A DNA stretch of 33,436 nt from the sequence record SRR20825019_863, one strand, 5' to 3'. The notes beneath the pieces are model-generated. The model did no database searches and had not been told where the DNA came from. It saw only the letters and a program-made list of their open reading frames with translations. Numbering within the stretch: the stretch's first letter is position 1; the number at the start of each line of letters is the position of its first letter. Both the position numbers and the translations under genes were made by a program. Of the stretch, positions 4,314 to 33,436 are shown piece after piece.

Positions 4314-4369
4314 TTAAGTAAACTTTAAGGTTCAAATCGAGCATTTCTCCCAAATAAAGTGAACTTTTG
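4314..4369 (+). promoter_or_regulatory. OmpR-type direct repeat TTAAG-N6-TTAAG plus -7 box
   Basis: TTAAG at 4314 and 4325; AACTTTTG at 4362, 37 nt after the start of the second half-site. Confidence 0.7.
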
Positions 4370-4373
4370 CACT

Positions 4374-6424: not shown

Positions 6425-6476
6425 GATGATCTTAAGATTTCTAGGTTGATGAAGGAATTAGGTTTAAGTACTTTTG
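6421..6476 (+). promoter_or_regulatory. OmpR-type direct repeat TTAAG-N6-TTAAG plus -7 box
   Basis: TTAAG at 6421 and 6432; TACTTTTG at 6469 (37-nt offset). Confidence 0.7.
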
Positions 6477-6496
6477 TTTCAAAATTATAATTTATT

Positions 6497-6943
6497 ATGA
6501 AACAGAGAGTTATAGGGTTTTCGTTGGCCTTTTTCGGTGTGATTTGTTCAAGTTTTCTTTTCATCTCATGTAAAAAAGTAAAAACGAAATCAGTAGAAAA
6601 AACTGTTATTGAAGGAACATGGAAGATTGCGAATCTGACAGATGACGGAGAGGATGAAACTTATTATTTTACAGGATATTCGTTTGATTTCAATTCAGAT
6701 GGAAATGTGATTGCAACAAATGGTTCATCAACAGTTTCTGGAACTTGGTCTGTTTCTAAGGATAATAGTAACGACGATAGTTCGAGTGATGTTGATTTTA
6801 ACTTATCTTTTCCTGAAACCAACAATTTCGATGAGCTAAATGACGATTGGGATATCGTTTTGCAAAATGATAACACGCTTGAATTAAAAGATGTAAGCGG
6901 AGGAAACGGTGGAACGGACTTGTTGACGTTTTCTAAAAATTAA
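6497..6943 (+). CDS. Lipoprotein with lipocalin-like beta-barrel domain
   Basis: Lipobox FISC followed by KK; GTWKI and GTWSV motifs; acidic mature part. Confidence 0.75.
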   Translation: MKQRVIGFSLAFFGVICSSFLFISCKKVKTKSVEKTVIEGTWKIANLTDDGEDETYYFTGYSFDFNSDGNVIATNGSSTVSGTWSVSKDNSNDDSSSDVDFNLSFPETNNFDELNDDWDIVLQNDNTLELKDVSGGNGGTDLLTFSKN

Positions 6944-6958
6944 TCAAAAACAAAATTT

Positions 6959-9520: not shown

Positions 9521-9540
9521 TTTAAACTAGATACGAAATG

Positions 9541-9570
9541 AACCCCAATTGTTTTTCAGTTGGGGTTTTA
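9541..9570 (+). terminator. Rho-independent terminator
   Basis: AACCCCAA-ttgtttttcag-TTGGGGTT followed by TTATGTTT. Confidence 0.75.
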
Positions 9571-9592
9571 TGTTTAGTAGTCTAGCAAAGTC

Positions 9593-9648
9593 TTAAGGAG
9601 ATTTTAAGAAACGACTAAGGTCTTCTTTAGTTTACACCTCTACATTTG
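9593..9648 (+). promoter_or_regulatory. Four 11-bp-phased half-sites plus -7 box upstream of the efflux operon
   Basis: TTAAG 9593, TTAAG 9604, CTAAG 9615, TTTAG 9626; TACATTTG at 9641, 37 nt from 9604. Confidence 0.75.
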
Positions 9649-9670
9649 AGTTCAAATTAATTGTGCTCAG

Positions 9671-12600: not shown

Positions 12601-13999
12601 TCGACCTGTATTGTTGACTGCGGCAGCAGCGGCTCTCGGCTTTTTACCAATGGCAATTTCTACGAATGCTGGAGCAGAAATTCAGCGACCACTTGCAACT
12701 GTAGTGATTGGTGGATTGATCACAGCCACACTATTGACGTTAATTGTGCTGCCAGTATTGTACGCGTTGTTTGATTCGTCAGCGAGAAAACAAAGCGGTC
12801 TCAAGAGACAAGCGAAGTTGATGATTATGGTTGGGGTTTGCGCTCTTCCTTCGCTTTCATGGTCTCAGTCTACGGAGATTTCTTTGCAAGATGCTCTCGA
12901 ACGGGCAGTGGCAAATAATGGACAGTTGAAAGCATTAAAAAAGGATGTGGAGATGAATCAAGCGTTGGAGAAAACGGCTTTTTCAATCGATAAAACAGAC
13001 ATCTATTACAGCTTTGATCAGAATAATATCGCTCCGAATAATGCCGCGTTGAATGTCTGGGGACTGAATCAATCGTTCCAATTACCGTCTTTTTATGTAG
13101 CTCAAAAAAAAATGCTCACGAGTGCTACATCCATGTCGGAATCGGAATACGTATTGGATGAACAATTGATAAAAAAGGAAGTGTCCAAGGCGTATTTCAC
13201 GGCACTTTATTGGCGAGAAATGACTGAAAACATGAAGTATTTGGACGGTATTTACCGCCGTTTTTCTGCGGGAGCTGAATGTAAATTCCAACTCGGAGAA
13301 TCGAATAACCTCGAAAAATTAACTGCACAATCCAAGCAAAAGGAAATAGAATTGCTGTTGAATCAAAGTCGATTGAATTTTGAGAAGGCTATCGTTCATC
13401 TAAATTCATGGATTCAAGACTCCGAAACAATTACTGTAATGAGTGGAAACGAACAAGTGTCCCTAGTTCCGTTGGATACTGCAAACCATCCTGGATATAC
13501 TCTTCATCAACAAGCCATTGCGTATTCAGAATATCAACTGAGTGCCAATAAACAAGCGTATCTGCCTACATTGAAGGTAGGAGCATTTCAGGGATCGAAC
13601 GGCGCTGTTGCTCCAAATCGTTACTATGGTGTACAAGCCGGAGTAGCGGTTCCACTTTTTTTCGGTGCGGATCGCGCGAGGGTGAATGCATCGAAAATTG
13701 AGGTGATGAAAAAGGAAGCCGAATTAGACAATTATGCAGCGCTTCTTAAAGCAAACTATCAATCCTTTGTGCTTGAAATAGAAGGGTATCAGCAAGGACT
13801 AGACTATTTCGAATCCATTGGTCGATCTTTGTCTGAAGAAACCATTTTGAGCGCGCAGAAATCCTATACGTCTGGGGAAATTGACTTTTTGCAATATGCA
13901 ACGCTTCTAGACAATGCTGCTGCGATGAAATTGAACTATCTGCAGCAGAAACTTTTGTACAATTTAACGGTAATCGAAGCGAACTACATCCTAAACTAA
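9671..13999 (+). CDS. czcA: CusA/CzcA-family heavy-metal RND permease fused to a C-terminal TolC-like outer-membrane factor
   Basis: AVPDITNNQVQV, GAIDFGIIIDGAVIIAE, RLRPVLLTA, QRPLATVVIGG; about 400 extra C-terminal aa with OMF features (ISLQDALERA, SYTSGEIDFLQY). Confidence 0.92.
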   Translation: MIEKIIKFSLANKLVVLLFTAVLIGAGMYSLLNLPIGAVPDITNNQVQVITTSRNLSTQDVEKFLTYPVELEMANLPNVKEIRSISKFGLSVVTIVFDDEIGTYLPRQLIAEKIKSAEERIPAGFGKPFMGPVTTGLGEIYQYILDVDPAFKDNYSITDLRTIQDWTVKRQLSGIPGVVEVNTWGGSLKQYEVAINPEQLRASGISITQVYAALEANNSIAGGGYIEKGEESYFIRGEGLAASIEDIENSVVITREGVPVLIKDVAKVGFGAANRFGAVTGNGEGEKVLGQVMMLKDADSKKVIDAVKKRVEEISHTLPEGIKINAFLERSELIAKTTFTVSENLILGCLIVIFVVVLLLGNLRSGLVVASVIPLCLFFALTFMYIFGVDANLMSLGAIDFGIIIDGAVIIAEFIAFKITSERLAINSLPKTERSAFIDQVTFQGTSKMMRSAIFGQIIIIIVFIPILSLINVEGKMFRPMALVFCFALVGAMILCFTYVPVMSSLFLKPSNPKKRNLSTRLVEFLGRIYKPVILWALRKKAIVLGGAVTLLVLVFILFSRMGGEFVPTLDEGDIVIQPVLKTGTSLSKTIETTTAIEQILMKFPEVEQVVTRIGAAEVPTDPMSMEESDVIVKLRPKSEWKTASTKDELMDAFKKKLLDLAGIDYEFTQPIEMRFNELITGVRADLAIKVFGEDLEVLAAKAAEIEKAISKVEGASDISVEKVAGLPQMTVKYNRRKMAKYGLSIAELNKTLTMAFGGMTAGMIFEGEKQFDLVVRFDAEHRKDISNLERASVLLPDGNSLPFVEFAEISYTKGPAKISRDNTKRRIVVGINVRNRDLESVVNDVQKIIESKIEIPKGYTVEYGGQFENLRSARSRLSVAVPIALVLIFFLLYFAFKSVKEALMIYSAIPLSAVGGVLFLWMRDLPFSISAGVGFIALFGIAVLNGIVLIEQFKELKEHGIKNINKRIIMGTQARLRPVLLTAAAAALGFLPMAISTNAGAEIQRPLATVVIGGLITATLLTLIVLPVLYALFDSSARKQSGLKRQAKLMIMVGVCALPSLSWSQSTEISLQDALERAVANNGQLKALKKDVEMNQALEKTAFSIDKTDIYYSFDQNNIAPNNAALNVWGLNQSFQLPSFYVAQKKMLTSATSMSESEYVLDEQLIKKEVSKAYFTALYWREMTENMKYLDGIYRRFSAGAECKFQLGESNNLEKLTAQSKQKEIELLLNQSRLNFEKAIVHLNSWIQDSETITVMSGNEQVSLVPLDTANHPGYTLHQQAIAYSEYQLSANKQAYLPTLKVGAFQGSNGAVAPNRYYGVQAGVAVPLFFGADRARVNASKIEVMKKEAELDNYAALLKANYQSFVLEIEGYQQGLDYFESIGRSLSEETILSAQKSYTSGEIDFLQYATLLDNAAAMKLNYLQQKLLYNLTVIEANYILN

Positions 14000-14026
14000 C
14001 TGAACGAACGATTTAATATTGAACCC

Positions 14027-15166
14027 ATGAAAATAAAAAATGCAGCTTGGATTTTTAGTACTGTTTTGGTATTGATGTCTTGTGGATCCGAAGAGAATAC
14101 TACGTTAACGGATGTTGGAAATGAAGCTTCGTCGAGTGAAGTTGTTTTGACGAAAAAGCAGTTTGACCTTGGGAAAATGAAAATGGAATCTTTCTCTGAA
14201 CAGTCGTTTGATGGCATGATTCACGTAACTGGGATGATTGATGTTCCTGCGGAAAGTAAATCTGTGGTAAGTGCCTATTTCGGCGGGTATGTAAAGGAAA
14301 TTAGCCTGAAACAAGGTCAAATGGTAAAAAAAGGTCAGACTTTATTTGTGCTTGAAAATCCTGAATATCTTCAAATTCAACAAGATTTTCTAGAGGCGAA
14401 AAGTCAACTGAGTTATTTGAAATCAGACTATGAGCGACAAAAGGAACTTTCTAAGGATAATATTACTTCGCAAAAATCTTACTTGAAAGCAGAATCAGAT
14501 TACAAAGTGACGTTGGCGCGCTACGAATCTCTCAAGAAAAAATTAGGATTGATGAATCTAAATGCGGAAAGTGTGGATGAAACAAAATTACGCTCAACGA
14601 TAGTGGTTACTTCACCAATCACGGGATACATCACAGAAATTAGTGCAACGAAGGGAATGTTCTTAAATCCTTCGGATGTTGCACTTACGATTTTAAATAC
14701 CGCAGATATGCACGTAGAATTGAATGTTTTCGAAAAACAGCTCGGGAAAATTGCAGTTGGACAACCTGTTACGTTTCGTTTACAAGACAATTCTCAGCAA
14801 TTTTCAGCGAGTATAGAGATCATTAATAAGTCGATAGATCTTCAGAAACGAACGGTGATGGTGCATTGTCCTGTGAAGACCAGTGAAGCAACTCAACAAT
14901 TAATTCCAGGAATGTTTGTGGAAGCAGAAATTGTCACTTCGGAAGGGAAAGTATTGGCCTTGCCCGAAAGTGCTGTAATTTCAATTCGAGATAAGTTTTT
15001 TGTGCTCTTGAAGAAGAATGTATCTAACGAAACACTGAGTTTCGAGCAAAAAGAAGTACTCGTGGGACAGACCAAGAATGGATTTGTCGAAATTCTGAAT
15101 ACCGATGCTTTCGGAAAACAAAGTGTATTTTTAACGAAAGGAGCATTTAATTTAATTCAGGAATAA
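14027..15166 (+). CDS. czcB: RND efflux periplasmic adaptor (CzcB-like lipoprotein)
   Basis: Lipobox LMSC; lipoyl-like GQMVKKGQTL, coiled coil, SPITGYI, LIPGMFVEAEI, LPESAV. Confidence 0.9.
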   Translation: MKIKNAAWIFSTVLVLMSCGSEENTTLTDVGNEASSSEVVLTKKQFDLGKMKMESFSEQSFDGMIHVTGMIDVPAESKSVVSAYFGGYVKEISLKQGQMVKKGQTLFVLENPEYLQIQQDFLEAKSQLSYLKSDYERQKELSKDNITSQKSYLKAESDYKVTLARYESLKKKLGLMNLNAESVDETKLRSTIVVTSPITGYITEISATKGMFLNPSDVALTILNTADMHVELNVFEKQLGKIAVGQPVTFRLQDNSQQFSASIEIINKSIDLQKRTVMVHCPVKTSEATQQLIPGMFVEAEIVTSEGKVLALPESAVISIRDKFFVLLKKNVSNETLSFEQKEVLVGQTKNGFVEILNTDAFGKQSVFLTKGAFNLIQE

Positions 15167-15168
15167 GC

Positions 15169-15885
15169 GTGGAGAAGACAAGTGAAGAGCTGCAAGAAGA
15201 ATACCTAGCAAAGCATTACATACATCGAAGTAATTGGTTAAGGGCAGCTGTACTTGGAGCAAACGATGGAATTTTATCAATATCGAGTTTGGCGATAGGC
15301 GTTGCGGCTGCGAGTAACTTTAAAGAACCTATTATTCTGGCAAGCGTAGCGGGATTGGTTGGTGGAGCATTGTCTATGGCGGCGGGTGAATACGTGTCGG
15401 TGAGTTCGCAAACAGATGTCGAAAATGCCGATATTGAAAGAGAAAGAGCGGAGCTGAAAGATATGCCTGAAATTGAATTACAACGTTTGGCTGATATCTA
15501 CGAAAATCGTGGATTGAAAAAGGAAACAGCACTGATCGTTGCAAAAGAACTCACAGAACATGACGCCTTAGGAGCTCATATTCGCGATGAATTGGGGATT
15601 ACAGACATTAGTCAAGCGAAACCTTTGCAAGCTGCATTGGCTTCGGGATTGGCATTCATCGTTGGGGGCTTATTACCTATGCTCACTGTATTTTTACTTC
15701 CGTTGAATAGACTGGAGTACTATTTGTACGGCTTTGCCATTCTCTTTCTTGTTGTTTTGGGAATATTGGCGGCAAAAATTGGCGGATCTAACATTTTCAA
15801 GGCAATTGTACGCATTACGCTCTGGGGAACAATTGCTATGGGGTTAAGTTCTCTAGTCGGACACTTATTTGGGGTGAATGTGTAA
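15169..15885 (+). CDS. VIT1/CCC1-family Fe/Mn transporter
   Basis: WLRAAVLGANDGILS, SMAAGEYVSVSSQ, HIRDELG; GTG start. Confidence 0.93.
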   Translation: MEKTSEELQEEYLAKHYIHRSNWLRAAVLGANDGILSISSLAIGVAAASNFKEPIILASVAGLVGGALSMAAGEYVSVSSQTDVENADIERERAELKDMPEIELQRLADIYENRGLKKETALIVAKELTEHDALGAHIRDELGITDISQAKPLQAALASGLAFIVGGLLPMLTVFLLPLNRLEYYLYGFAILFLVVLGILAAKIGGSNIFKAIVRITLWGTIAMGLSSLVGHLFGVNV

Positions 15886-17620: not shown

Positions 17621-18031
17621 CTAATTCTGACTCAAGTATTCCTTGATTTCCCTTAATTGTTCGTCTGTAAGCTTATTAAACGCATGATTACCCGCAACGG
17701 GCGACCATTTTTGAATTTCTAAGGTATATGAATCACGTGCTTTTGTAAGCGAATCCTCGTTTCTCACAAATTGATCAAACCATTTTTCGTTAGGAACTCT
17801 TTTCAAGACATTTAGCAACGCAGGACCTGTTGTGTTTTTAGTAAGCATGTGGCAGGTCGCGCAATTGGCAGAAAAAACCTGTGGCACTGGAATCGTCGAA
17901 GCATTTCCAGAAATTGGCTCGGAATCTTTAACGCCGCAGAACGCTTCAGGTTCTTTTTTTGTCTGATTAAAACAGGAGGAAAGCGAAACAACGCTCATTG
18001 TGATGACTACAAAAACGTTCAGTGATTTCAT
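17621..18031 (-). CDS. Monoheme c-type cytochrome lipoprotein
   Basis: Lipobox LSSC; CATCH heme motif, TGPAL, C-terminal LTDEQLREIKEYL helix. Confidence 0.85.
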   Translation of the reverse strand: MKSLNVFVVITMSVVSLSSCFNQTKKEPEAFCGVKDSEPISGNASTIPVPQVFSANCATCHMLTKNTTGPALLNVLKRVPNEKWFDQFVRNEDSLTKARDSYTLEIQKWSPVAGNHAFNKLTDEQLREIKEYLSQN

Positions 18032-18876
18032 TCTCTAAAAGTGTAGATGTATTTCATTAATTCTCTAGAATCCGGTCGTTTATTTTGAGTGTCAATTGAT
18101 TCTATGAGTCCATTTTCGCTATAGTTCACAATGGTAACACTATACGTTAGAGAATCAAGTGTTTTTGACCTATAAGATCTCGTTTTTGACATTAATTTAT
18201 TATCTGCGGTGTACTGAAAAGTGGTTGTTAGAAAATCTGGTTCAGTTCCTCTTTTCCCATAACTTTTACTGTGGAAAATAGTGGAGTCAATCCTATTCGA
18301 TGAATTGAAATAAATGTCTTCGAACATGGTGGAATCAGAAGTTACATAAGAGCGTTTGTGAAGTTTACCCACAGTGAGGGTGTCTCCAAAAAATAATTTC
18401 CTGTCTTTGAATTCTTCTTCACGAAAAACAAAAAGTGTCTCGCCCCAGTTATCAGGATCATTACTTGTCTCCATTGCAACGGTTTGGATAGTGTCTTTCG
18501 ATGAATTATAGGATGTTAAATGAATCTTCCGAAAGGGTTCCTCGGAATCCACGTACATCTGAATGAATCCAATTTTATTTCCCGCATCATTATAGAAGTA
18601 GTAGTTTTTGTATTCATCCCAAATCGACTCTGCCTTTGGTCCAAAAGATTGACTGTAATTATTCGATGCAATCATCCTTCCATCCTCATTGAAAATAGAG
18701 TAGTAGCCATTTGGATAATCGGTCATGAATTGCACCGAATCAGTCACGCTGTATTGAAAAATGGTGTGAACACGATTTTTTATGAGGGTTTCTTGGGTTA
18801 GAAGACCACCGTGTTCTTGTCCCAAAGTGAAAAAAGCGACGAAAATGAGTGATAGAGAAAGAATTGCTTTTATCAT
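18028..18876 (-). CDS. Hypothetical secreted protein, beta-rich with YD-like Y-x-Y-N-x-x-G segments
   Basis: Signal peptide; YYFYNDAGN, FQYTADNK, NYSENG; ATGA overlap with the cytochrome gene. Confidence 0.7.
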   Translation of the reverse strand: MIKAILSLSLIFVAFFTLGQEHGGLLTQETLIKNRVHTIFQYSVTDSVQFMTDYPNGYYSIFNEDGRMIASNNYSQSFGPKAESIWDEYKNYYFYNDAGNKIGFIQMYVDSEEPFRKIHLTSYNSSKDTIQTVAMETSNDPDNWGETLFVFREEEFKDRKLFFGDTLTVGKLHKRSYVTSDSTMFEDIYFNSSNRIDSTIFHSKSYGKRGTEPDFLTTTFQYTADNKLMSKTRSYRSKTLDSLTYSVTIVNYSENGLIESIDTQNKRPDSRELMKYIYTFRE

Positions 18877-18877
18877 A

Positions 18878-19066
18878 TTAATCTTCTTCTTTGATAAAGT
18901 AATGTTGCTTTTCGGTGAATAAAATCACATCAACTCCGTTTTTGGGAGTCATCCAAACATCACCGCCACTGCTTGGAACACCGAAAATAGCAGGATTCTG
19001 GAAGAGAGAATCATTTTCATCTACTTTTAGGTAGAAATTGGACTCCGAATATGGATGATGCAGCAT
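18878..19066 (-). CDS. Short ORF, possibly the 3' remnant of a disrupted gene
   Basis: Stop lies 1 nt before the next ATG and the sequence is protein-like, but an in-frame stop sits two codons upstream of its ATG. Confidence 0.35.
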   Translation of the reverse strand: MLHHPYSESNFYLKVDENDSLFQNPAIFGVPSSGGDVWMTPKNGVDVILFTEKQHYFIKEED

Positions 19067-19275
19067 TTCTTAATGGAATTGTGATAGACAACGTAGAAAT
19101 TGTTAGTGAAGAATCGGCATGGCTTCTCAGAGCGTATTGAGTACAAATGGAAGCAAGCAATTGAAATGTGTATTTTTAGAGAAACATTGAAATTATGAAA
19201 TGGAAATAACTTTTTAGGATTGTTGTGAAGGAAGATATAACGGGACGTATTGATCCATTTTAAATCGAAGGAATC

Positions 19276-20742
19276 TCACCGTGTTTCTTTGAAATGAACT
19301 TCGTAGATGGTGTGTGAAAACATATCTTTTTCTTTCCACTTTACAATATTCTCATCCTTGGATTTTATTCTCCGAGCATTTTTTCGAATTCGACGCGGCG
19401 TCCGAGAAGGTAATTTGTATGCTTTGTATTTTCTTCGTCTTTGAAAATCTCGGTGGGGTACTTCTTTGAAGTCAAACATAACTCCATTGGCTCCAATTAG
19501 ATTGATTTTCCCAAGAGGTTCTATGTCGATGTTGGGATAAAGTGATACCAAATCAAACTGCCGTCCTTCCAACTGTCCGTTTACCTTAACGTAGATCTTT
19601 TGAGGATTCTGAACCTCTCTCAAAGCGATTCCATGTTGTCGTTTAATCCAAAGGTATTTTGATGAATAGACAGTGGTTGCCAACGTACATTTTAGTATTT
19701 CTCCACTAGAACTAGTTCCTTCTGCGTTTCCTGAGACAATGTACCCAGTTGAATCTCTGACAATGTGAATTTTTCTCGACTGAAGTGAATCTAACTTAAA
19801 ATAGGGAGTCGGTCGATACGGGCCATGTCGCTGAAGAAAAGATTCAATTGGATGATTTCCAGTGATTTCATAGTCGGAGATAAACTTACCATTCTCTAAA
19901 TAGGTCTGAATTTTTATGTCAAATACTGTATCGATTCCTTGAAGAGTTGTCAAACGTTGAATAGTACGTTGAAGAATTGTGTCATATTCAATGAATTCAA
20001 TGATTCTCTCGCTCGCTTGGATTCTTTCCGTGTACTTTTCAGTTATTTCTTTTGATTTCCTTTCAACGTTTTTCGTTTGCAACGTACATATACTGTCTCT
20101 TTTGGGGTAAGCGCCAGAAAATATAGAGTCTATATAATACTGTGTTTTAATTATTGTATCGCCTCGCTCGGCACTGTCATACTTCCTCCAGCGGGTTTTT
20201 TCCTGTTCAAGTAAACTAATGGTGTATGGTTGTGGAGAACTAAGCGAATTTATTGCGTTGAGATCAGTTATCATCCAGTTTTTGTAGTACTGAGTGAGCT
20301 GATTATCTAAAGCAAAATAATGTATTTTATTTTCTTGGTGTTCTTCCATTGCAACTTCAGAATTCCAAACGACTCCCGAATCCATTTCAAATATGATTTG
20401 ATAACTCAGTTGATTGATTGTATCGTACCATTTGTGATAAATGGAAAGATCTTCACTATTGCTCCAATAGGCATATAAGTCATTTACCTCAGTCACTACT
20501 GAAATGAGGTAGGATTTTTTTTCATTAATTGGATCGAAATAAATCACTTTACTCACAGAAAGTGAGCCAGAATCTTTTGTTAGCTCAATTGAAGCAAGAT
20601 GCGACTCTCCAGTTTCTGAAAGAGAGTACTGCCTGTCGTAGTTTATCGTTTTTACAAAATCGATGTATTTCTTTTGTCCAAAAGATGGAATGGACACTAA
20701 TGTGACAAAGAGAAGGAAGAAAATTTTAAAAAGTCGTTTCAT
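19276..20742 (-). CDS. Hypothetical secreted protein
   Basis: Likely start MKRLFKIFFLL at 20742 (signal peptide; TAATG overlap with the upstream gene). Confidence 0.7.
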   Translation of the reverse strand: MKRLFKIFFLLFVTLVSIPSFGQKKYIDFVKTINYDRQYSLSETGESHLASIELTKDSGSLSVSKVIYFDPINEKKSYLISVVTEVNDLYAYWSNSEDLSIYHKWYDTINQLSYQIIFEMDSGVVWNSEVAMEEHQENKIHYFALDNQLTQYYKNWMITDLNAINSLSSPQPYTISLLEQEKTRWRKYDSAERGDTIIKTQYYIDSIFSGAYPKRDSICTLQTKNVERKSKEITEKYTERIQASERIIEFIEYDTILQRTIQRLTTLQGIDTVFDIKIQTYLENGKFISDYEITGNHPIESFLQRHGPYRPTPYFKLDSLQSRKIHIVRDSTGYIVSGNAEGTSSSGEILKCTLATTVYSSKYLWIKRQHGIALREVQNPQKIYVKVNGQLEGRQFDLVSLYPNIDIEPLGKINLIGANGVMFDFKEVPHRDFQRRRKYKAYKLPSRTPRRIRKNARRIKSKDENIVKWKEKDMFSHTIYEVHFKETR

Positions 20743-21266
20743 TACAAGTTGATCATAGAACGTTTTTTTCTTTGTTTTATTAGAATGATACAGACGACAA
20801 CTGTCCCAATAATTCCGCTTATGTAGGAAGAAACATGCGACCATCCAACGGCTAAAAATAGGCTGTGCACTCTTTTGTCCATCAATGAAGCAAGTCTTGG
20901 CAAAAGATAGATCACCGAGAGTTCGCTCAGTGTATAACCAACAATTCCAGCGATAAGTGCAATTCCAAACATGGTCAACAAAAGTTTGATGATTAAGCGG
21001 AGCACTATCCTGAATTCAAGTGGCGAATTCTTGCCAAAATGATTGCATCCTGCGATCAAAATTCCCATCGGAAGTCCAACCCACCAGGTCGCAATAACAC
21101 CCCACGTCAAAGCAAGCAAAATAGGTGATTCACTCTCAATCACCTTTGGATGTCCAATTGTAAAATATTCAACACACAGATGGGCTGTAATGAAATCGTG
21201 CAGAATTCCGTAGCAGATAGATAACCCTAACGCACTCAGCACAATTTTCATGAAGTTTAGAATCAT
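20742..21266 (-). CDS. Hypothetical four-TM membrane protein
   Basis: Four hydrophobic helices; YGILHDFITAHLCVEYFTIGH and WGVIATWWVG motifs. Start could be the second Met. Confidence 0.75.
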   Translation of the reverse strand: MILNFMKIVLSALGLSICYGILHDFITAHLCVEYFTIGHPKVIESESPILLALTWGVIATWWVGLPMGILIAGCNHFGKNSPLEFRIVLRLIIKLLLTMFGIALIAGIVGYTLSELSVIYLLPRLASLMDKRVHSLFLAVGWSHVSSYISGIIGTVVVCIILIKQRKKRSMINL

Positions 21267-21485: not shown

Positions 21486-22946
21486 ATGCATGATTTAACT
21501 TCCATCAAAAAATTATTTACAATTCCCAAAGGTGGTGTCAATGACGCTAACTTTGCGGAAGCGATGCAGCAGGCGATTTCATTGGAATTAGCAACAATTC
21601 CAACGTATTTGTCCACGTACTATTCCATTCAACGAACTCCAGATCAGGCGGCAATTTATCAGAAAATACTTTCAAGTATTCCTGGAGATTTGAACCAAGA
21701 CGCGAGCAAAATTGCAGAAGAACTGACGATAGATGCAATGGTGTATGCGAATAAAACCGCCGCGTTAATTATGAGCGTCGTGATTGAAGAAATGTTGCAC
21801 CTTTCATTATCCAGTAATGTAAATCAAGCAATGATCGGTCCGCCAAACCTCATGAATATTGTGCCGAATTTGAATTTTCCAACACAATTGGATGGTCATC
21901 AACCAGAGTTCCCTATCAACCTTGGTAAACTTTCGATGCTACAATTGAAAACTTTCCTGCAAATTGAAAGTCCAAATGCGTTTACTGTTGGAACACCTGA
22001 GTTATTGAGAGCGGTAAAATACACAACAATAGGCGAGTTCTACGAAATGATTATTTCATACATTGAAAATGATTTTCAGGGAACGTTCGATATGAATCGT
22101 CCACAATTAACGCCCGATCAGCCTTTTTACTCGCAAAACTCGATTAATACTGTTTATTACGACCGCGACCATAAACCGCATTTCGTTAGTGAAGATGATA
22201 GTGGTGATCTAAAACTCGTGCTAAATGGAGAAACGGCGATTGATGCAATGAATGAAATTATCCATCAAGGAGAAGGACATCAAGGAGGAACTCAATTGAC
22301 ATTTGATGAAAATGGAATGCCAATTCCATTACCGGTTGTAGATGGAGAAGTACAATTTAGTCCAGAGGATTATGATGATCCCGAAAAGAAAGAGCTTTCT
22401 CATTTTGGTAAATTCCTCGAAGCGTACAGCCTCGGAGATCATTACATCACTAAATTTGATCAGTATGGAATCGATTTCTTCGATCTTTTTGTTTACAATC
22501 AACTAGATAATGCAAAGTTGGCAGATTTTGCTTCCAATGCAGAGGTTCAAATGGTCGCTGAATTAGGAAATGCAATTTATACATATATCATCTTGATGAT
22601 TGATACGTGCTATAACTCTGATAAATCAACACAGTTTGGCGTGTTTATGTACGGAATTCATAAATCGATGATTTGGTTATTGAGTGAATTGGGGAATGGA
22701 ATTAGAAAAAAGACCTTCACAAAAGGTGGAGTTGCGTACAACGGGGCATTGAGCTTTGAATATTTCGATTTCAGTAAGAAAACGGGAGTAAGTCCAAAAG
22801 AACAAATGACTGCGCTTGCGACTACTCTTGGGAACACTTATCCTAATTGGGCATGGCTTACTACGGACAAAGCGTATCTCGAGTCTTTGCCTGATGTTGG
22901 TTTAGACTACAGCGTAAAGGCGAATATGCCAGCAATTCCTAATTAA
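21486..22946 (+). CDS. Ferritin-like domain protein (PF12902-type, related to the VioB/RebD/StaD domain)
   Basis: QQAISLELATIPTYL...YSI, SVVIEEMLH, FLQIESP, YTTIGEFY, IIHQGEG, SHFGKF. Confidence 0.85.
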   Translation: MHDLTSIKKLFTIPKGGVNDANFAEAMQQAISLELATIPTYLSTYYSIQRTPDQAAIYQKILSSIPGDLNQDASKIAEELTIDAMVYANKTAALIMSVVIEEMLHLSLSSNVNQAMIGPPNLMNIVPNLNFPTQLDGHQPEFPINLGKLSMLQLKTFLQIESPNAFTVGTPELLRAVKYTTIGEFYEMIISYIENDFQGTFDMNRPQLTPDQPFYSQNSINTVYYDRDHKPHFVSEDDSGDLKLVLNGETAIDAMNEIIHQGEGHQGGTQLTFDENGMPIPLPVVDGEVQFSPEDYDDPEKKELSHFGKFLEAYSLGDHYITKFDQYGIDFFDLFVYNQLDNAKLADFASNAEVQMVAELGNAIYTYIILMIDTCYNSDKSTQFGVFMYGIHKSMIWLLSELGNGIRKKTFTKGGVAYNGALSFEYFDFSKKTGVSPKEQMTALATTLGNTYPNWAWLTTDKAYLESLPDVGLDYSVKANMPAIPN

Positions 22947-22978: not shown

Positions 22979-23560
22979 ATGTCAGATTCGACACCAATAA
23001 AACAATTGCTCCCACCATTAGAACTTCACGCCTGTATGGGATTAAATTCGTGTAAAAATCACGGGTTTTCAGGAAACAATGATTGCGCAGGAAAGGGAGA
23101 TTGCGCAACAATTAATCATCCTTGTCACACCTTAAACGAGTGTAAAGGACAAGGTGGTTGCGGTTTATTCGGAACAACCGAAGAATTTTGTCACCCAGGA
23201 GAAAATGATTGTCGCTACCAAGGAAGCTGTGGAACTCCGATTATTTCTTCACGGTTCATTGTTCAAGGACCGAATAAAGGTCGCAGCGTTTGGCAGCTGG
23301 CACGTAAACTCTTTGAAGAAAAAATGACAGGAGCTGGAAAAACATTTGGTAATCCACCTGCTGGACAAGAATATGGACCAACGGAAGCTTTTGCAGCTGC
23401 ACGTGGAGCATACGAGTCATGCGGACAAAGTGGATCTCGATACTGTTCCTACGCATTTGATCCAACGAAAAAAGCCGAAGAGCAAGCAGCAAGACAAAAA
23501 GCTTTCCAAGAAAAGAGCGCAAATGAATTGCCAGATACCTTGGATAACTGTGGATGTTAG
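22979..23560 (+). CDS. Cys-rich repeat protein, putative MNIO substrate/RiPP precursor (BufA2-like repeats, no signal peptide)
   Basis: 14 Cys; HACMGLNSCK and HPCHTLNECK; NDCAGKGDC, NECKGQGGC and NDCRYQGSC; directly upstream of the DUF692 gene. Confidence 0.75.
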   Translation: MSDSTPIKQLLPPLELHACMGLNSCKNHGFSGNNDCAGKGDCATINHPCHTLNECKGQGGCGLFGTTEEFCHPGENDCRYQGSCGTPIISSRFIVQGPNKGRSVWQLARKLFEEKMTGAGKTFGNPPAGQEYGPTEAFAAARGAYESCGQSGSRYCSYAFDPTKKAEEQAARQKAFQEKSANELPDTLDNCGC

Positions 23561-23572
23561 TATTTTGTGCCC

Positions 23573-24511
23573 ATGATAAATTCGACGAATAATCAGTTGG
23601 GTCTTCCCAATCTTGGATTAGGTTTGGGATTAAGGACTCAACATTTTAATCATATTCTGGAAGAGAATCCCAGCGTTGATTGGTTCGAGATCATTTCCGA
23701 AAATTTCATGGACTCGTTTGGGCGTCCGCGCTACGTTTTAAATCAAATTAAAGAACGATACCCTGTGGTGATGCACGGGGTATCGCTTTCTATTGGGAGC
23801 ATGGACCCGTTGGATTTTGATTATTTGAAAAAGTTGAAATCACTCGCTGATGAAATCAATCCCGCGTGGATTAGTGATCATTTGTGTTGGACAGGCGTAC
23901 TTTCTGTAAATTCTCACGATTTGCTACCGTTGCCCTTAAATGAAGAGTCACTCAAGCATGTGTGTAGCAGAATCAATACCGTTCAAGATTATTTAGAGCG
24001 ACCGTTGATTTTGGAGAATCCAAGTACGTATGCATCCTTTAAAAATTCGAATATTCCCGAATGGGATTTTTTGCGTTTAATGGCAAAGGAAACACGGTGC
24101 GGACTGCTTTTAGACGTAAATAACGTGTTTGTCTCTGCTTTCAACAACGATTTCGATCCAGTGGAATACATCGAAGGAATTCCGTTTGAACAAGTGGTGC
24201 AAATGCATCTCGCAGGACATCAACATTGTGGAAATTATATTATTGATACACACGATAGAGAAGTTACAGACCAAGTGTGGGAATTGTTTCGCTTAGCTTG
24301 GCAAAAATCAGGTGGCGTTTCGACCTTACTTGAATGGGATGGAGACGTTCCAGAATTTGATACGTATTATCAAGAACTGCAAAAGGCAAAAGATTTCATG
24401 GGTGGAAAATTTAAAGGCATTAACCTAGAAGAACGAACGGGAGAATTTGAACGCGTTTCGAATCCTATTCATTTGATGAAACCAGAAATCATTCACACAG
24501 CAAATTCATAA
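23573..24511 (+). CDS. Multinuclear non-heme iron-dependent oxidative enzyme (MNIO, DUF692; MbnB/TglH/ChrH/BufB family)
   Basis: GLGLR, WFEIISENF, MHGVSLSIG, SDHLCW, LENPSTY, LLLDVNN, MHLAGH, IDTHD, LLEWD. ATG 23573 or GTG 23567. Confidence 0.95.
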   Translation: MINSTNNQLGLPNLGLGLGLRTQHFNHILEENPSVDWFEIISENFMDSFGRPRYVLNQIKERYPVVMHGVSLSIGSMDPLDFDYLKKLKSLADEINPAWISDHLCWTGVLSVNSHDLLPLPLNEESLKHVCSRINTVQDYLERPLILENPSTYASFKNSNIPEWDFLRLMAKETRCGLLLDVNNVFVSAFNNDFDPVEYIEGIPFEQVVQMHLAGHQHCGNYIIDTHDREVTDQVWELFRLAWQKSGGVSTLLEWDGDVPEFDTYYQELQKAKDFMGGKFKGINLEERTGEFERVSNPIHLMKPEIIHTANS

Positions 24512-25344
24512 TGAGTAATTTAAAGAATTTACCTGATTTTCAGTCGTGGATGCAACAACAATTACTCTATCCACACGGAGAAGTAGCAGCTGATGGATCA
24601 ATAAAACAAAGTGATGTTCCATTAGAGGAATTGGTTCAAGATTCAAAGCGTTTATCGGCACGTGACCATTTGGCGATTTACCAACGAAGTTACATTGCAC
24701 GCTTGCGAGATTGCATGTGTAAAGTGTTTAGTTCGTTAGAATATGCTTTAGGTGAAGAGTTGTTTGTGGCTTTTGCAGATACGTATTTGGAATCTCATCC
24801 TTCTTCGAACTATAATTTGAGCAATCTTGGAGCTAAGTTCGCCGATTTTCTACAATCCACGCGACCAGACGCTCACGAAGAAATAAAAGAAGACTGGCCT
24901 GATTTCATGATTGAATTGGCGCGATTCGAGTTTGCGATCAATACCTTATTCGATCAAGAAGATCCATCAACGAATAATCTTGCTACCACGAAAACGAAAG
25001 AAAGTGATTTACGACTTTGCAACGTGCTTGAGTTGTTTGAATTCAAATTTCCGATTCGACCATTTTACAGTGCATTCGTGAATGGAGATCAACCCGATTT
25101 ACCCGAAAAAAGGCAAACTTATTGTGCCGTAATCAGACAAAGACACAATTTCCGAATTGCACTTTACGACCTTCAACCAGCGCAATATTTCTTTTTGAAG
25201 CAACTGCAACAAAACGAAAGTGTTCAACAGACTTTTGACTATTTGACAACAGAAATGTCGATGGATGAAAAGCAGCTTCAAACTGTGTGGGAAATCTGGA
25301 AACAAACGTGGATTGCGGCTGGATTTCTAGCAGAAATTGGTTAA
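24511..25344 (+). CDS. DUF2063 protein, MNIO partner (BufC/HvfC-like)
   Basis: RLSARDHLAIYQRSYIARL...LGEELF...Y...HPS...LGAKFADFL...ELARFE; TAATG overlap with the MNIO gene. Confidence 0.88.
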   Translation: MSNLKNLPDFQSWMQQQLLYPHGEVAADGSIKQSDVPLEELVQDSKRLSARDHLAIYQRSYIARLRDCMCKVFSSLEYALGEELFVAFADTYLESHPSSNYNLSNLGAKFADFLQSTRPDAHEEIKEDWPDFMIELARFEFAINTLFDQEDPSTNNLATTKTKESDLRLCNVLELFEFKFPIRPFYSAFVNGDQPDLPEKRQTYCAVIRQRHNFRIALYDLQPAQYFFLKQLQQNESVQQTFDYLTTEMSMDEKQLQTVWEIWKQTWIAAGFLAEIG

Positions 25345-26419: not shown

Positions 26420-26995
26420 TTAGTTGTAATCAAAATCTTTCACTTTGATTTTACACATTTCTCCCGTTTTCAGGTTGTGCCAAACGATTCCTTCGATTCC
26501 ACAATCATTGCCAAAAATACTTTTTTGATTCGGAAGCCATTTTTTCAATCCTTCAAAATCTGTGGGAGCATTTGGATAAACGACCTTGTTTTTCCAATCT
26601 TCTAATGAGAATATGAAAAGCGTGTGCCCCACAAGGTTCAAAGGATTCCCTTGAATTTTTTCTCCTAACGCTTCAGCACTCCATTCTCCATCAGGCACGT
26701 TTGAAAAATCAGTGTTTTTTACAGCATCAAAAATGTACGCATCCGCTTTGTCAGATTCATCTGCATCGATATACCAAGGATCTTGAATTCCGTGTTGCTT
26801 TTGAATTTTACTCGGATTTCTTCTTTTCTCCACTCTAACGACGGTCTGATTTCTTACGGTCAATCGAACATTTGTTCCATCTAGTTTTTCTGTAGCAATA
26901 GCAGATTCAAAATCAAATTCAGGAACGGCGAGTGTTGTATTTACTTTCCTGTTTCCTTCCCAATTTCGGCCAAATATTGTAGGTATTTTTTCCAT
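26420..26995 (-). CDS. ATP-dependent RNA ligase-like nucleotidyltransferase (DUF5565/RLIG1-like)
   Basis: KIPTIF, motif I ATEKLDGTN (K37), EALGEKIQGNP, motif IV IEGIVWH, motif V KIK. Confidence 0.8.
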   Translation of the reverse strand: MEKIPTIFGRNWEGNRKVNTTLAVPEFDFESAIATEKLDGTNVRLTVRNQTVVRVEKRRNPSKIQKQHGIQDPWYIDADESDKADAYIFDAVKNTDFSNVPDGEWSAEALGEKIQGNPLNLVGHTLFIFSLEDWKNKVVYPNAPTDFEGLKKWLPNQKSIFGNDCGIEGIVWHNLKTGEMCKIKVKDFDYN

Positions 26996-29063: not shown

Positions 29064-29918
29064 CTAAATGTTATTTGAAGCGTCGGTTTTTGAAGCCTCC
29101 CAACCGATAATAGCCGTTTTCCGAGTCGTTCCCCACATATAACCGCCGAGTGCTCCTGTGGATTGAATAACTCTGTGACAAGGTATTAGAAATGCAATGG
29201 GATTATTTCCAATGGCCGTTCCAACCGCTCTCGAAGCCTTTGGTTTTTGAATGACTTTCGCAATAGTTCCATACGTTGTTAGATCGCCTGTTGGAATTTT
29301 TAATAGTGCTTCCCACACTTTAAGTTGAAAATCTGTTCCCTTTAGATGCAGTTTTATACAACTTATGCGACTCCAATCGTGGGAGTGAATTTTTAGAGCA
29401 TCTTGTTGAATTTGATCCGTTTGTTCAATAAATGTGGCTTTGGGGAAACGTGCTTCTAGTTCTGAAAAAGCTATTTTTTTGTCGTCCGAAAAACCCATAT
29501 AACAAATCCCTTTATAGGTGGAGGCAATGAGTATTTCGCCAAACATGCTTTTCTGGTAGCTATAATTTATTGTGAGATGTTCCCCCTTGTTTTTGTATTC
29601 TCCGGGCGTCATACCTTCGATTTTAACGAATAAGTCGTGTAACCTGCCAGTTCCTGAAAGTCCAGTTTTGTGCGCAGCTTCGAACAAGGTTGATTGGGAA
29701 TTGTTCAGAATTTGTTTGGCATGTTGAACGCTGATGTATTGCAAGAATTTTTTTGGACTAACACCTGCCCATTCAGTAAATAATCGTTGAAAGTGAAAAG
29801 GGCTTAAATGTACCTTCTCAGCAATTTCTTCAAGGGTCGGCTGTTCGGTGAAGTTTTGTTGTATGAATTCAATAGCTTCGGCTATTCGACCATAATTTAT
29901 ATATTCTTGCTCGTTCAT
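29064..29918 (-). CDS. ada: Ada-like AraC-HTH fused to methylated-DNA-protein-cysteine methyltransferase (no N-terminal Zn domain)
   Basis: LSPFHFQRLFTEWAGVSPKKF HTH; FQLKVWEAL, RAVGTA and the active-site IPCHRV. Confidence 0.9.
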   Translation of the reverse strand: MNEQEYINYGRIAEAIEFIQQNFTEQPTLEEIAEKVHLSPFHFQRLFTEWAGVSPKKFLQYISVQHAKQILNNSQSTLFEAAHKTGLSGTGRLHDLFVKIEGMTPGEYKNKGEHLTINYSYQKSMFGEILIASTYKGICYMGFSDDKKIAFSELEARFPKATFIEQTDQIQQDALKIHSHDWSRISCIKLHLKGTDFQLKVWEALLKIPTGDLTTYGTIAKVIQKPKASRAVGTAIGNNPIAFLIPCHRVIQSTGALGGYMWGTTRKTAIIGWEASKTDASNNI

Positions 29919-30072: not shown

Positions 30073-31185
30073 TCATTCTTCCATAAAAAGAATCTTTCCT
30101 TCGATATCAATATAGCCACGTTTTGAATAACCGTACCATTTACTTGGATCGCCAAAGTAAAATTCGATGAAATTCTTGTTGGGAAAACTGAACACTTTAA
30201 CAAACTCTATTTCGGAAACAATATTCATTGTTGTGTCCATGATGCCCCACGTGATTGGACTAGCAGATCGATTACAATAGAGTCCAAATCCGTTGACAAA
30301 GAAGCGCAATTCTATACTTTTTGACTCAAAAACAATTTGATGCTCCGAATTGATAACGGCATAGGAAGAATCCGTTTCTACTCCGCAAAACCCTTCGTGA
30401 AAATCCCATACATTTTTGAACGAATTTTTAGAAACTCTTTTTCCTTGAGTGTTAATGAAATAACCGTGTTCGTAATTGTCTTTTTTTACAAATGCAAATC
30501 CTTCGGAAAACTTTGAAACATTATAGTAATACTCCTCGAAAGTATTTTCTCCTGTTCTATTAATAAAACAATTACCACGCGAAGAATCGGAAACAGCTGC
30601 ATAGCCATGATTAAAACCTGAAAAAACTTGGGTTAGATTACACGGTATTTCGAGTTGTCCTACATTATTGATGAAGCCGTATTTGCCAGTCACTTTGTCT
30701 TGAATCATTGCCAAACCTTGACTGTAAGTACCAATCGATGAATAGATGATTTCTGTAATTGGTTTACCATTAATCATCGAGTAGAAACCCCATAAATTAT
30801 TCTTCTCAACTCCAATAATTCCTTCTCCTTGAAAGTAAAGTCGCTGGAATTCGGGTTGTATAATAAATGTTCCTTTAACGTCGATTAATCCATACAATGA
30901 GTCGAAAGCAACAATTGCGACTCCGTTTTTAAATGAGAAGGCATGATCAAAAACAGGATCAATTATTAAATGTCCTTCTTCGTTTATTACTCCGAATTTC
31001 CCATCTATAAAGACAAAAGCAAGTCCCTCAGAAAATTCTTTCGCACCGGAGTAAACGGGTTGGATTTTAATTTCACCTTGGGCGTTTATGTATCCGAACT
31101 TTCCTTTTTCTGAAAACTTCAGCAAAGATTGGCTGAATGAAATGGTAGTCAGAATAATAAACAATGAGGTAAAGATCAGTTTCAT
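30073..31185 (-). CDS. Secreted WG-repeat (KWG) protein
   Basis: Signal peptide; repeated [FYW]G[YFV]I[ND]xxG...I.P...FSEGLA units. Confidence 0.9.
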   Translation of the reverse strand: MKLIFTSLFIILTTISFSQSLLKFSEKGKFGYINAQGEIKIQPVYSGAKEFSEGLAFVFIDGKFGVINEEGHLIIDPVFDHAFSFKNGVAIVAFDSLYGLIDVKGTFIIQPEFQRLYFQGEGIIGVEKNNLWGFYSMINGKPITEIIYSSIGTYSQGLAMIQDKVTGKYGFINNVGQLEIPCNLTQVFSGFNHGYAAVSDSSRGNCFINRTGENTFEEYYYNVSKFSEGFAFVKKDNYEHGYFINTQGKRVSKNSFKNVWDFHEGFCGVETDSSYAVINSEHQIVFESKSIELRFFVNGFGLYCNRSASPITWGIMDTTMNIVSEIEFVKVFSFPNKNFIEFYFGDPSKWYGYSKRGYIDIEGKILFMEE

Positions 31186-32628: not shown

Positions 32629-33436
32629 CTATTGCCCTAATAAGTAGGCAAAAATGAGAGGAGCAACAATTGTTGCATCTGACTCTATAATGAACTTTGG
32701 AGTGTCAATATCTAATTTTCCCCACGTGATTTTCTCATTTGGAACCGCGCCTGAGTACGAACCATAACTCGTAGTTGAATCGGAAATTTGGCAGAAATAG
32801 CTCCAGAACGGTGTGTCTGTGCGCTCCATGTCTTGGTAAAGCATTGGTACAACACAAATAGGGAAGTCACCCGCAATTCCTCCACCAATTTGGAAGAAAC
32901 CGATTCCTTCTGTTCCCGCAGTTTCGGTGTAGTAATCTGCAAGCCACATCATGTATTCAATTCCCGATTTCATCGTCGAAGCTTTCAATTCTCCTTTAAT
33001 GCAATAGGAAGCGAAAATGTTTCCAAGTGTAGAATCTTCCCATCCTGGAACGATGATCGGCAAGTTTTTCTCTGCCGCAGCCAACATCCAAGAGTTTTTC
33101 GGATCAATTTCATAATATTGTTCCAACACACCTGAAAGCAACAATTTGTACATGAATTCATGCGGAAAATAACGCTCACCTTTCGCCTCTGCATCTTTCC
33201 AGATTTCAACAATGTGCTTTTGCAAACGACGAAATGCTTCCTCTTCAGGAATACATGTGTCCGTCACACGATTTAGACCTCGTTCAAGCAAATCCCACTC
33301 GTCCTTCGGAGTTAAATCACGGTAATTTGGAACACGCTCGTAGCTATTGTGTGCTACCATGTTCATTAAATCTTCTTCCAAGTTTGCACCAGTACACGAA
33401 ATCAAATGCACTTTATCCTGACGGATCATTTCTGCA
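32629..33436 (-). CDS. Deoxyhypusine synthase-like protein (probable homospermidine synthase), 5' end outside the window
   Basis: TGANLEED, DSTLG, IGGG, GSYSGAVPNEKITWGK, SDATIVAPL; the frame stays open to the window edge (..AEMIRQ). Confidence 0.9.
   Translation of the reverse strand, partial: AEMIRQDKVHLISCTGANLEEDLMNMVAHNSYERVPNYRDLTPKDEWDLLERGLNRVTDTCIPEEEAFRRLQKHIVEIWKDAEAKGERYFPHEFMYKLLLSGVLEQYYEIDPKNSWMLAAAEKNLPIIVPGWEDSTLGNIFASYCIKGELKASTMKSGIEYMMWLADYYTETAGTEGIGFFQIGGGIAGDFPICVVPMLYQDMERTDTPFWSYFCQISDSTTSYGSYSGAVPNEKITWGKLDIDTPKFIIESDATIVAPLIFAYLLGQ

Follow-up and report, generated by a model that had tools for sequence, protein, structure and literature searches.

Background

The bufferin-type substrates of MNIO enzymes (DUF692) and their DUF2063 partners that have been studied so far are all exported, and buffer copper in the periplasm. 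In the case of Buf2 the four central cysteines are converted to 5-thiooxazoles (-4 Da) and the outer pair is linked by a disulfide; copper binding is known for both Buf1 and Buf2, and the signal peptide of Buf1 is dispensable for modification, which implies that it is the core that is recognised (parts of PMC11626156). The signals themselves have been described as Sec (parts of PMC11626156 and PMC12452194). For FonA, 5-thiooxazoles were assigned by nuclear magnetic resonance and the residue that follows a cysteine was found to govern selectivity, cysteines followed by a charged residue being left unprocessed by FonBC (parts of PMC13097082). Precursors without a signal go, according to parts of Antoine et al. 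(2025), with partners that lack the DUF2063 signature, and one signal-less group, adjamnio-I, comprises 100 sequences of 122-293 aa with 8-21 cysteines (PMC12452194). Here we analyse the gene of a cysteine-rich protein (P0001) in SRR20825019_863, a stretch of DNA of 33,436 nucleotides to which we refer as the window. The gene represents a branch of the BufA2-like MNIO substrates that lacks a signal and has a ferritin-like partner.

Our preferred reading, to which we attach moderate confidence, is that the gene product is a folded, cytoplasmic protein of the bufferin superfamily (BufA2-like, or 'captophorin Cys-Lys'), which is modified by the MNIO, binds metal and has a di-metal ferritin-like protein as its partner. 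Such a signal-less branch would show that thiooxazole chemistry takes place inside the cell too, probably with a redox enzyme as partner. In at least two phyla the branch is strictly tied to a ferritin-like protein of the di-metal type, in a third one it is fused to this protein, and it would provide a first functional handle on the uncharacterised ferritin-like proteins of PF12902.

Results

A conserved family of cysteine-rich proteins

The reading frame of P0001 starts at the first ATG, GTG or TTG codon after an in-frame stop, so that a longer N-terminus is ruled out. Its translation has cysteines at exactly the positions listed in a first-pass annotation of the window (19, 25, 36, 42, 49, 55, 61, 71, 78, 84, 148, 156, 191 and 193), and these form five C-x5-C repeats (19/25, 36/42, 49/55, 55/61 and 78/84) and a C-x7-C pair (148/156). 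The internal duplication reported at the same time was recovered as well: residues 13-46 align to residues 47-90 with a local score of 62, as compared to 24.7 +/- 5.4 for composition-preserving shuffles, none of which (0/2000; maximum 61) reached that score. The first module follows the pattern HxCxGLNxCK...NDCAGxGDCAT and the second the pattern HxCHTLNxCKGQGGCG...ENDCxYQGSCG; a Pfam scan of the protein matched no family. What that annotation had observed is hereby confirmed, and its interpretation is partly supported, as will become clear from the results below.

In a search of 5.8 billion proteins, 219 relatives of the cysteine-rich protein at E <= 0.001 were retained from 263 candidates. 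Among the 120 matches listed, lengths range from 182 to 227 aa and identities from 55 to 86%, and all are called hypothetical; the few relatives with a named source derive from Flavobacteriaceae, Aquimarina, Flavobacterium, Pseudotenacibaculum, Psychroserpens and other Bacteroidota. The open reading frame (ORF) is a real and conserved gene, mostly of Bacteroidota. Thirteen of the 14 cysteines are kept in 119-121 of the 121 family members. The remaining one, C193, occurs in 32/121 members, the C-terminus otherwise ending in variants like CPPN, CQSK, CDCN and others. The terminal CGC for which a special role had been suggested is therefore not a motif, and C191 (119/121) is the only residue of it that is conserved in this family of ~195-aa proteins. 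Both C191 and C193 are missing from the homologue in Kitasatospora, which has the eight core cysteines only and neither a signal nor the C148/C156 pair, and from five of the six fusion proteins inspected (see below); eight fusions in the alignment of ferritin-like sequences likewise stop before the tail.

A four-gene cassette with a BufB-type MNIO

The gene is part of a self-contained cassette that encodes a ferritin-like protein, the cysteine-rich protein, a BufB-type MNIO and a DUF2063 partner (Table 1). The MNIO ORF opens with the GTG at 23567, its likely start being the ATG at 23573, 13 nt past the stop of the cysteine-rich gene, and the DUF2063 gene overlaps the MNIO stop. A gap of 219 nt and a divergent gene precede the cassette and a convergent gene follows it. 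The order precursor, BufB-type MNIO, DUF2063 partner is the one described for the setting of BufA2 (NF050166), and the combination of an MNIO, a DUF2063 protein of PME-type 1 and a nearby cysteine-rich ORF is the gene content by which captophorins are recognised. The MNIO stays below the cut-off of the HvfB model (250.9 bits, cut-off 360), and the partner gave sub-threshold matches to NGO1945_C, i.e. the recognition-element part (RRE; 24.6 bits, cut-off 27), and to HvfC (67.5 bits, cut-off 142). The proposal of a second, TglH-like modification site at the C-terminus has become weak, since the enzyme passes the BufB equivalog model and the last residue, C193, is not conserved. No TglH-specific model was present among the MNIO profile matches, in a library that may hold none.

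Thirteen proteins of the window were compared by tblastn to 19 related loci, one genome per species, which are all from Bacteroidota except for a record titled Janthinobacterium lividum MAG (metagenome-assembled genome). The genes for the ferritin-like protein, the cysteine-rich protein and the MNIO were found in 19/19 loci and that of the DUF2063 partner in 18/19, in the same order throughout and with gene ends that abut or overlap; the start of the contig cuts the ferritin-like gene in one case (L010), and in another (L008) its end cuts the MNIO, before the DUF2063 gene. The first-pass annotation had reasoned that the protein would not be an MNIO substrate if its homologues mostly occurred apart from DUF692; an MNIO adjoins it in 20 out of 20 stand-alone loci examined. 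The nine other proteins compared are not conserved in the 19 loci, apart from weak SDR matches in two of them, and clustering of 193 ORFs from the flanks gave no family that occurs in more than four of 20 loci, so that no exporter, protease or regulator is conserved there. Nor did this clustering reveal another small cysteine-rich ORF that is conserved in the cassette.

The four genes recur outside the Bacteroidota. In Kitasatospora sp. NBC_01300 (NZ_CP108409.1, 6797-10455) the order is cysteine-rich protein, MNIO, DUF2063 partner, ferritin-like protein, and this locus was the single record retrieved with P0001 from a plasmid collection; genes for LemA and DUF2207 proteins follow it. Among the 19 loci, the cassette of the Janthinobacterium lividum record (L016), which is 58% identical to that of the window and typical of Hymenobacter loci, lies on a MAG contig with a betaproteobacterial label, possibly by a binning error or by transfer. 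A scan of the cassette for sigma-70 promoters and terminators, which does not cover promoters of Bacteroidota, returned fewer promoter-like sites than were found in shuffled sequences.

The core domain is shared with exported relatives

An exhaustive phmmer search over 1.84 billion representatives yielded 275 relatives at E <= 1e-3 and 122 at E <= 1e-10, which share a part that corresponds to about residues 13-128. This core domain is common to exported relatives, to fusions with the ferritin-like protein and to fusions with DoxX. Across 116 sequences C19, C25, C42, C49, C55 and C78 are invariant, and C61, C84, H17, H47, W105, A108, R109 and P127 are present in at least 90%. Relatives that carry a twin-arginine (Tat) or Sec signal share the pattern HxCxGLNxCK...CAGxGxCAT...HxCxGxNxCKGQGGCG...NxCxGxGxC...WxxAR, and the exported and cytoplasmic forms can be aligned across the entire core, including the WxxAR helix. 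In line with this, NF050166 (BufA2) matches the protein over residues 32-59 only, with 30.2 bits (E 3.9e-7), and 20 of the 26 relatives tested match it too, all below the cut-off and with a maximum of 44.5 bits. The suggestion that the protein is a BufA2-related candidate MNIO substrate of unusual length is hence borne out by the profile match and by the phmmer links to exported relatives; the sub-cut-off score and the lack of a signal make it a relative of BufA2, not a member as the NCBI defines the family.

Signals were called from hydropathy, by way of a heuristic, and with a crude regular expression of our own, which also set the N-terminus classes of the 150 phmmer matches listed. The N-terminus was not signal-like in 72 of these; 34 have one of the twin-arginine type (RRxF followed by a hydrophobic stretch, often with a lipobox) and six a Sec-like one, 19 are fused to a ferritin-like protein, three are fused to DoxX, and 16 are fragments or other. 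By the same crude expression most exported relatives (P0189-P0269; 32-34 of them) open with a twin-arginine motif. Within the first 45 residues of the cysteine-rich protein the highest 12-residue Kyte-Doolittle mean is 0.92, versus 1.66-2.34 in exported relatives, which agrees with the earlier judgement that it has neither a Sec nor a Tat signal. It thus lacks, by this heuristic, the signal peptide and periplasmic location that belong to the definition of NF050166. Only 16 residues precede its first conserved histidine, and the family median is 10 (motif found in 118/121 members).

The natural reading of a protein without a signal is that it is a cytoplasmic product, as had been proposed, and the cysteine-rich protein apparently stays inside the cell. 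The N-terminus of the ferritin-like protein is not signal-like either, as judged by hydropathy and by inspection, and inspection gave the same result for the MNIO and the DUF2063 partner. Export by the type IX secretion system (T9SS) was considered and dropped, as no C-terminal sorting domain was matched. A scenario in which the protein does leave the cytoplasm, either non-classically or by hitch-hiking, and functions as a periplasmic bufferin would accord with the periplasmic location of all characterised relatives (parts of PMC11626156 and PMC12452194). We nevertheless regard it as extremely unlikely, given that no signal-like segment is found in the family or at the ferritin-like N-terminus, that the flanks hold no conserved transporter, and that other bacteria have the domain joined to a large protein without a signal.

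In a FastTree phylogeny built from 139 rows and 117 columns of the core domain, the protein of the window falls in a set of 43 rows (support 98), of which 29 are signal-less proteins, 14 are ferritin fusions and none is exported. Another 26 rows (support 88) make up a second group, of 15 signal-less proteins and 11 ferritin fusions only, and all 34 exported and three DoxX rows are in one group of 51 (support 87), together with 14 rows called signal-less. Two metagenomic representatives are chimeric: in P0132 the C-terminal two thirds of the cysteine-rich protein are preceded by the N-terminal half of an MNIO, and in P0175 a cysteine-rich N-terminus leads into the end of an MNIO. These are unexplained and could be assembly or frameshift artefacts, or rearranged genes.

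Predicted fold of the cysteine-rich protein

The AlphaFold2 model, built from an alignment of 116 sequences, is a single compact domain (pLDDT 80, pTM 0.80) in which the first 100 residues, i.e. the cysteine-rich part, are almost without regular secondary structure. Helices are predicted at residues 104-118, 136-140, 162-182 and 184-189, in agreement with the helical middle and the Ala/Glu/Lys helix that the first-pass annotation had read from the sequence. A fold search of the model against the PDB found nothing (best E 7.7), a profile search of PDB sequences gave no match at E <= 1, and a search of the ESM Atlas returned unnamed clusters only, with a recognition below the useful range.

The helical part had furthermore been interpreted as a follower that is read by the DUF2063 protein, with the terminal CGC as a second site of the TglH type. 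Since the family has almost no leader (the median of 10 residues given above), recognition must indeed lie in the core or in the C-terminal part, and C191 is nearly always retained. However, the residues W105, A108 and R109 of the middle helix are equally kept in signal-bearing exported relatives, which makes this helix part of the common domain and not a follower specific to the family, and the C-terminal helices (162-182 and 184-189) are modelled within the compact fold at pLDDT 91-96, unlike a free tail. The entire C-terminal part is moreover missing from Kitasatospora and most of the fusions inspected, C193 is rare and the MNIO is of the BufB type, so that we consider this combination of follower and second site very unlikely. 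Cysteines 71, 148, 156 and 191, which are specific to the family of ~195-aa proteins, and the C-terminal helix probably make up an additional site, of a structural kind or for a metal, by which the extension is held to the core.

The ferritin-like protein and its fusions to the cysteine-rich domain

The only relative of the 486-aa ferritin-like protein in the PDB is 3hl1_A (sequence E 3.5e-8; fold E 1.2e-5 with the AlphaFold2 model, which has a pLDDT of 88 and a pTM of 0.91). Nine residues are invariant in 26 aligned ferritin-like sequences (E34, E101, E102, H105, E161, E263, E303, H306 and H392), and they sit on or beside the predicted long helices. E34, E102-x-x-H105, E161 or E263 and E303-x-x-H306 look like a putative di-metal carboxylate site. 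Prediction of a complex of the ferritin-like and the cysteine-rich protein scored 0.01 (mark 0.34), with an uncertain fold of the partner, and speaks neither for nor against binding.

The first-pass annotation had pointed to the ferritin-like neighbour, and this pointer was well aimed, as both proteins are fused in other bacteria. Out of 30 long relatives scanned with Pfam, PF12902 is present in 22, DoxX in three and an MNIO in one, and four gave no match. The fusions with PF12902 consist of a full-length homologue of the 486-aa protein, a proline-rich linker and the cysteine-rich domain, which in most of them ends at the equivalent of C148/C156 (CGxSGxSGxxSC). With the cysteine-rich part of a fusion as query, 205 clusters were obtained from 412 candidates, with PF12902 in 119 of the 120 listed; fusions of the ferritin-like protein to the cysteine-rich domain, which are new here, thus occur in at least 205 protein clusters. 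They are found in isolates of Collimonas arenae, Sphingomonas, Tahibacter aquaticus, Acidovorax, Paraburkholderia and Thalassospira, with no annotation other than ferritin-like, and in one metagenomic protein (P0273) the ferritin-like part is fused to a full-length copy that includes the C-terminal helix. The plasmid collection, when searched with the fusion P0164, held only distant stand-alone ferritin-like genes, none of which covered 80% of the query. In Data set S1 of the captophorin study (PMC13097082) the single MNIO-partner pair of Collimonas arenae lies at 5.443 Mb of 5.604 Mb, with the MNIO at 5,442,848-5,443,832 of NZ_CP009962.1. The fusion of that species (LT85_4870) is expected nearby by estimate only, which falls short of a verified adjacency.

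Periplasmic bufferin clusters usually have DoxX as their accessory oxidoreductase. In four relatives (P0215, P0227, P0229 and P0277) a DoxX membrane domain is fused to a cysteine-rich domain of the exported type. The parallel to the ferritin-like fusions suggests a pattern that is shared across compartments, with the cysteine-rich domain of each as a possible direct target of an accessory redox protein.

The fusions also bear on the possibility that the cysteine-rich protein is an ordinary metal-thiolate domain that stays unmodified, binds Zn, Fe or Cu through Cys and His and is a structural or electron-transfer module of the ferritin-like protein, in which case the MNIO and its partner would act on another substrate or play a minor part. 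A precedent is rubrerythrin, which is served by a rubredoxin domain, and such a role would suit a domain that is found at the C-terminus of the ferritin-like proteins of at least 205 clusters, has invariant His-x-Cys pairs (H17/C19 and H47/C49) and is modelled as a compact fold (pTM 0.80) rather than as a peptide. We consider it rather unlikely all the same: precursor, MNIO and partner are consecutive, abutting genes in 19/19 loci and recur with the ferritin-like gene in Kitasatospora, the domain is homologous to proteins whose cysteines are known MNIO targets, and the cassette offers no second conserved small cysteine-rich ORF. To our knowledge, the C-x5-C spacing is also unlike the common Fe-S and rubredoxin motifs.

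Alternatively, the ferritin-like protein could be a second tailoring enzyme that oxidises the cysteine-rich protein further, before or after the MNIO has acted, the fusions being enzyme and substrate in one and the product a doubly modified protein or a released peptide. Its invariant Glu/His pattern is typical of di-iron oxidases, it strictly co-occurs with the cysteine-rich protein and is fused to it, and Antoine et al. allow for extra modifying enzymes in MNIO clusters (parts of PMC12452194). Yet there is no conserved protease or exporter to release such a product, an enzyme of 486 aa that is joined 1:1 to its substrate would have a single turnover per molecule, and nothing identifies the residue that it would target; this makes a tailoring role improbable.

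Finally, thiooxazole ligands made by the MNIO might hold a copper or other redox-metal centre that serves as the electron-transfer site or the second catalytic site of a di-iron ferritin-like oxidase. In Bacteroidota and Actinomycetota the two parts would be separate subunits, and in Pseudomonadota a single polypeptide. This possibility is speculative and rather improbable. It would amount to a protein-derived cofactor made by an MNIO, i.e. to a case in which the chemistry of ribosomally synthesised and post-translationally modified peptides builds part of an enzyme and not a secreted metallophore.

Features and other genes of the window

Table 1. Features of the cysteine-rich gene, its cassette and the surrounding genes, in positions of the window.
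Feature	Position	Strand	Basis
Ferritin-like protein, 486 aa, first gene of the cassette	21486..22946	+	PF12902, 112.3 bits
Cysteine-rich protein (P0001)	22979..23560	+	193 aa, ends in DNCGC*; translation
BufA2-like core domain, residues 13-128	23015..23362	+	best stretch for most of the 150 listed matches
Duplicated cysteine modules, residues 17-85	23027..23233	+	self-alignment versus shuffles
Conserved helix, residues 104-118, SVWQLARKLFEEKM	23288..23332	+	AlphaFold2 helix; W105, A108 and R109 in at least 90% of 116 sequences
C148-x7-C156 pair	23420..23446	+	C148 in 121/121 and C156 in 119/121 family members
Family-specific C-terminal helix 162-189 and tail with C191 and C193	23462..23557	+	AlphaFold2 helices 162-182 and 184-189
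BufB-type MNIO (DUF692)	23567..24511	+	PF05114, 358.1 bits; NF050167 MNIO_BufB, 360.7 bits (cut-off 310)
DUF2063 partner (PME-type 1 by Pfam signature)	24511..25344	+	PF09836, 59.7 bits (cut-off 27.2)
853-aa protein with T9SS sorting tail	6959-9520	+	
RNA-ligase-like protein	26420-26995	-	
AraC-type/methylguanine-DNA-methyltransferase fusion (Ada-like)	29064-29918	-	
WG-repeat protein	30073-31185	-	
Deoxyhypusine-synthase-like protein, cut by window end	32629-33429	-	

A heavy-metal efflux island is located 6-17 kb upstream of the cassette (4359-15885, plus strand). It encodes a CopR/CzcR-like regulator and a CopS/CzcS-like kinase, both below the NCBIfam cut-offs, a pump of the CusA/CzcA family and the resistance-nodulation-division (RND) type (TIGR00914, 1136.8 bits, cut-off 701), a CzcB-like adaptor and a VIT1-family protein. 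The ORF of the pump (9671-13999, plus strand, 1442 aa) has an outer-membrane-factor (OEP/TolC-like) domain at about residues 1150-1442, in frame with the AcrB-like part, and is either an unusual fusion of pump and channel or the result of a missed stop. Between the island and the cassette, and divergent from the latter, the region 17621-21266 (minus strand) encodes proteins of 174 and 522 aa without a family match, one of 282 aa that weakly matches F5/8 type C, and a small SoxX-like c-type cytochrome that is below the cut-off. By tblastn the genes of this region are not conserved in the other loci.

Discussion

In the reading that we prefer, the MNIO and its DUF2063 partner would recognise the core domain, as there is no leader, and the enzyme would oxidise several of the eight invariant cysteines (19, 25, 42, 49, 55, 61, 78 and 84) to 5-thiooxazoles, by analogy with Buf1, Buf2 and FonA, in which this was demonstrated by experiment. 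Also by analogy, modification would precede the folding of the protein around the metal. The multi-site modification and the binding of several metals that the first-pass annotation had proposed are likewise an inference. The modified protein would then remain in the cytoplasm, bind metal, most likely copper, and act on or together with the ferritin-like protein; the lack of an export route and the presence of a constant companion and fusion partner of the di-metal type both point in this direction. Its role may be in storage, redox maintenance, provision of a cofactor or further tailoring. A precursor with essentially no leader makes substrate recognition by an MNIO and its partner directly testable.

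Several points weigh against this reading. The chemistry ascribed to the family is carried over in full from periplasmic relatives, and the protein does not reach the 60-bit cut-off of NF050166. The one pointer to copper in this genome is the efflux island, which is not found as a conserved neighbour of the cassette in the other 19 loci. The di-metal ligands were assigned from conservation, and 3hl1, the sole structural relative of the ferritin-like protein, is itself a protein of unknown function. If ferritin-like fusions were to occur without an adjacent MNIO, the domain can work unmodified. The tree of the core domain is short and weakly resolved (62/136 forks open), with signal labels set by a crude rule. 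The rule given in parts of Antoine et al. for signal-less precursors (PMC12452194) does not cover the present case, since the partner here carries the DUF2063 signature.

The family is catalogued in a published supplement and is without a description in the literature searched. Of the captophorin data sets (PMC13097082), S1 has the MNIO-PME1 pairs of two of our loci (L005 and L006) as rows, and S2 lists 34 ORFs with the family motif, as cysteine-rich ORFs; four short stretches of fusion proteins gave no match in S2, in which long entries are covered in part only. Ferritin is mentioned neither in the captophorin paper and these two data sets nor in Antoine et al. (PMC12452194). The literature search found nothing that joins 'ferritin-like' with MNIO, no mention of PF12902 among the matches listed and no experiment on the family; the combination of 'ferritin-like' and 'DUF692' gave one unrelated paper and also matched a methanobactin paper (parts of PMC9060507). 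The cytoplasmic nature of the protein and its partnership with the ferritin-like protein therefore appear to be unreported, within a search that left out bioRxiv supplements.

Comparison with known systems

The fusions resemble rubrerythrin in that a ferritin-like domain is followed by a small cysteine-rich domain. They differ from it in that this domain is BufA2-like and comes with an MNIO, and nigerythrin (1yux) was found only at a Foldseek E of 2.7.

With HvfA and FonA, the precursors with EGKCG repeats, the system shares an MNIO and a DUF2063-RRE partner that act, here putatively, on many cysteines of one precursor. The cysteine-rich protein has no EGKCG repeats and no signal, and its cysteines are in a Cys-Lys and not a Lys-Cys context.

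In terms of length, number of cysteines, absence of a signal and position before the MNIO, the family is like adjamnio-I, as far as can be compared from the description given in parts of PMC12452194, and adjamnio-I may overlap with it. The partner in the window has the DUF2063 signature (59.7 bits), whereas the adjamnio-I partners are described there as lacking it.

A close match is with BufA2 (Buf_6/12Cys, e.g. Buf2 of Caulobacter vibrioides) and the 'Cys-Lys' captophorins, with which the protein shares the cysteine pattern and the Cys-Lys dyads (C25-K26 and C55-K56). As in the Buf2 systems, a small folded protein is encoded ahead of a BufB-type MNIO and a DUF2063 partner (parts of PMC11626156 and PMC13097082). 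Unlike Buf2, it has no signal, is about three times as long as the 61-residue Buf2 core and differs by two insertions and by a C-terminal extension of 65 residues that brings three further conserved cysteines; and where the Buf2 systems frequently include DoxX, its obligatory neighbour is the ferritin-like protein.

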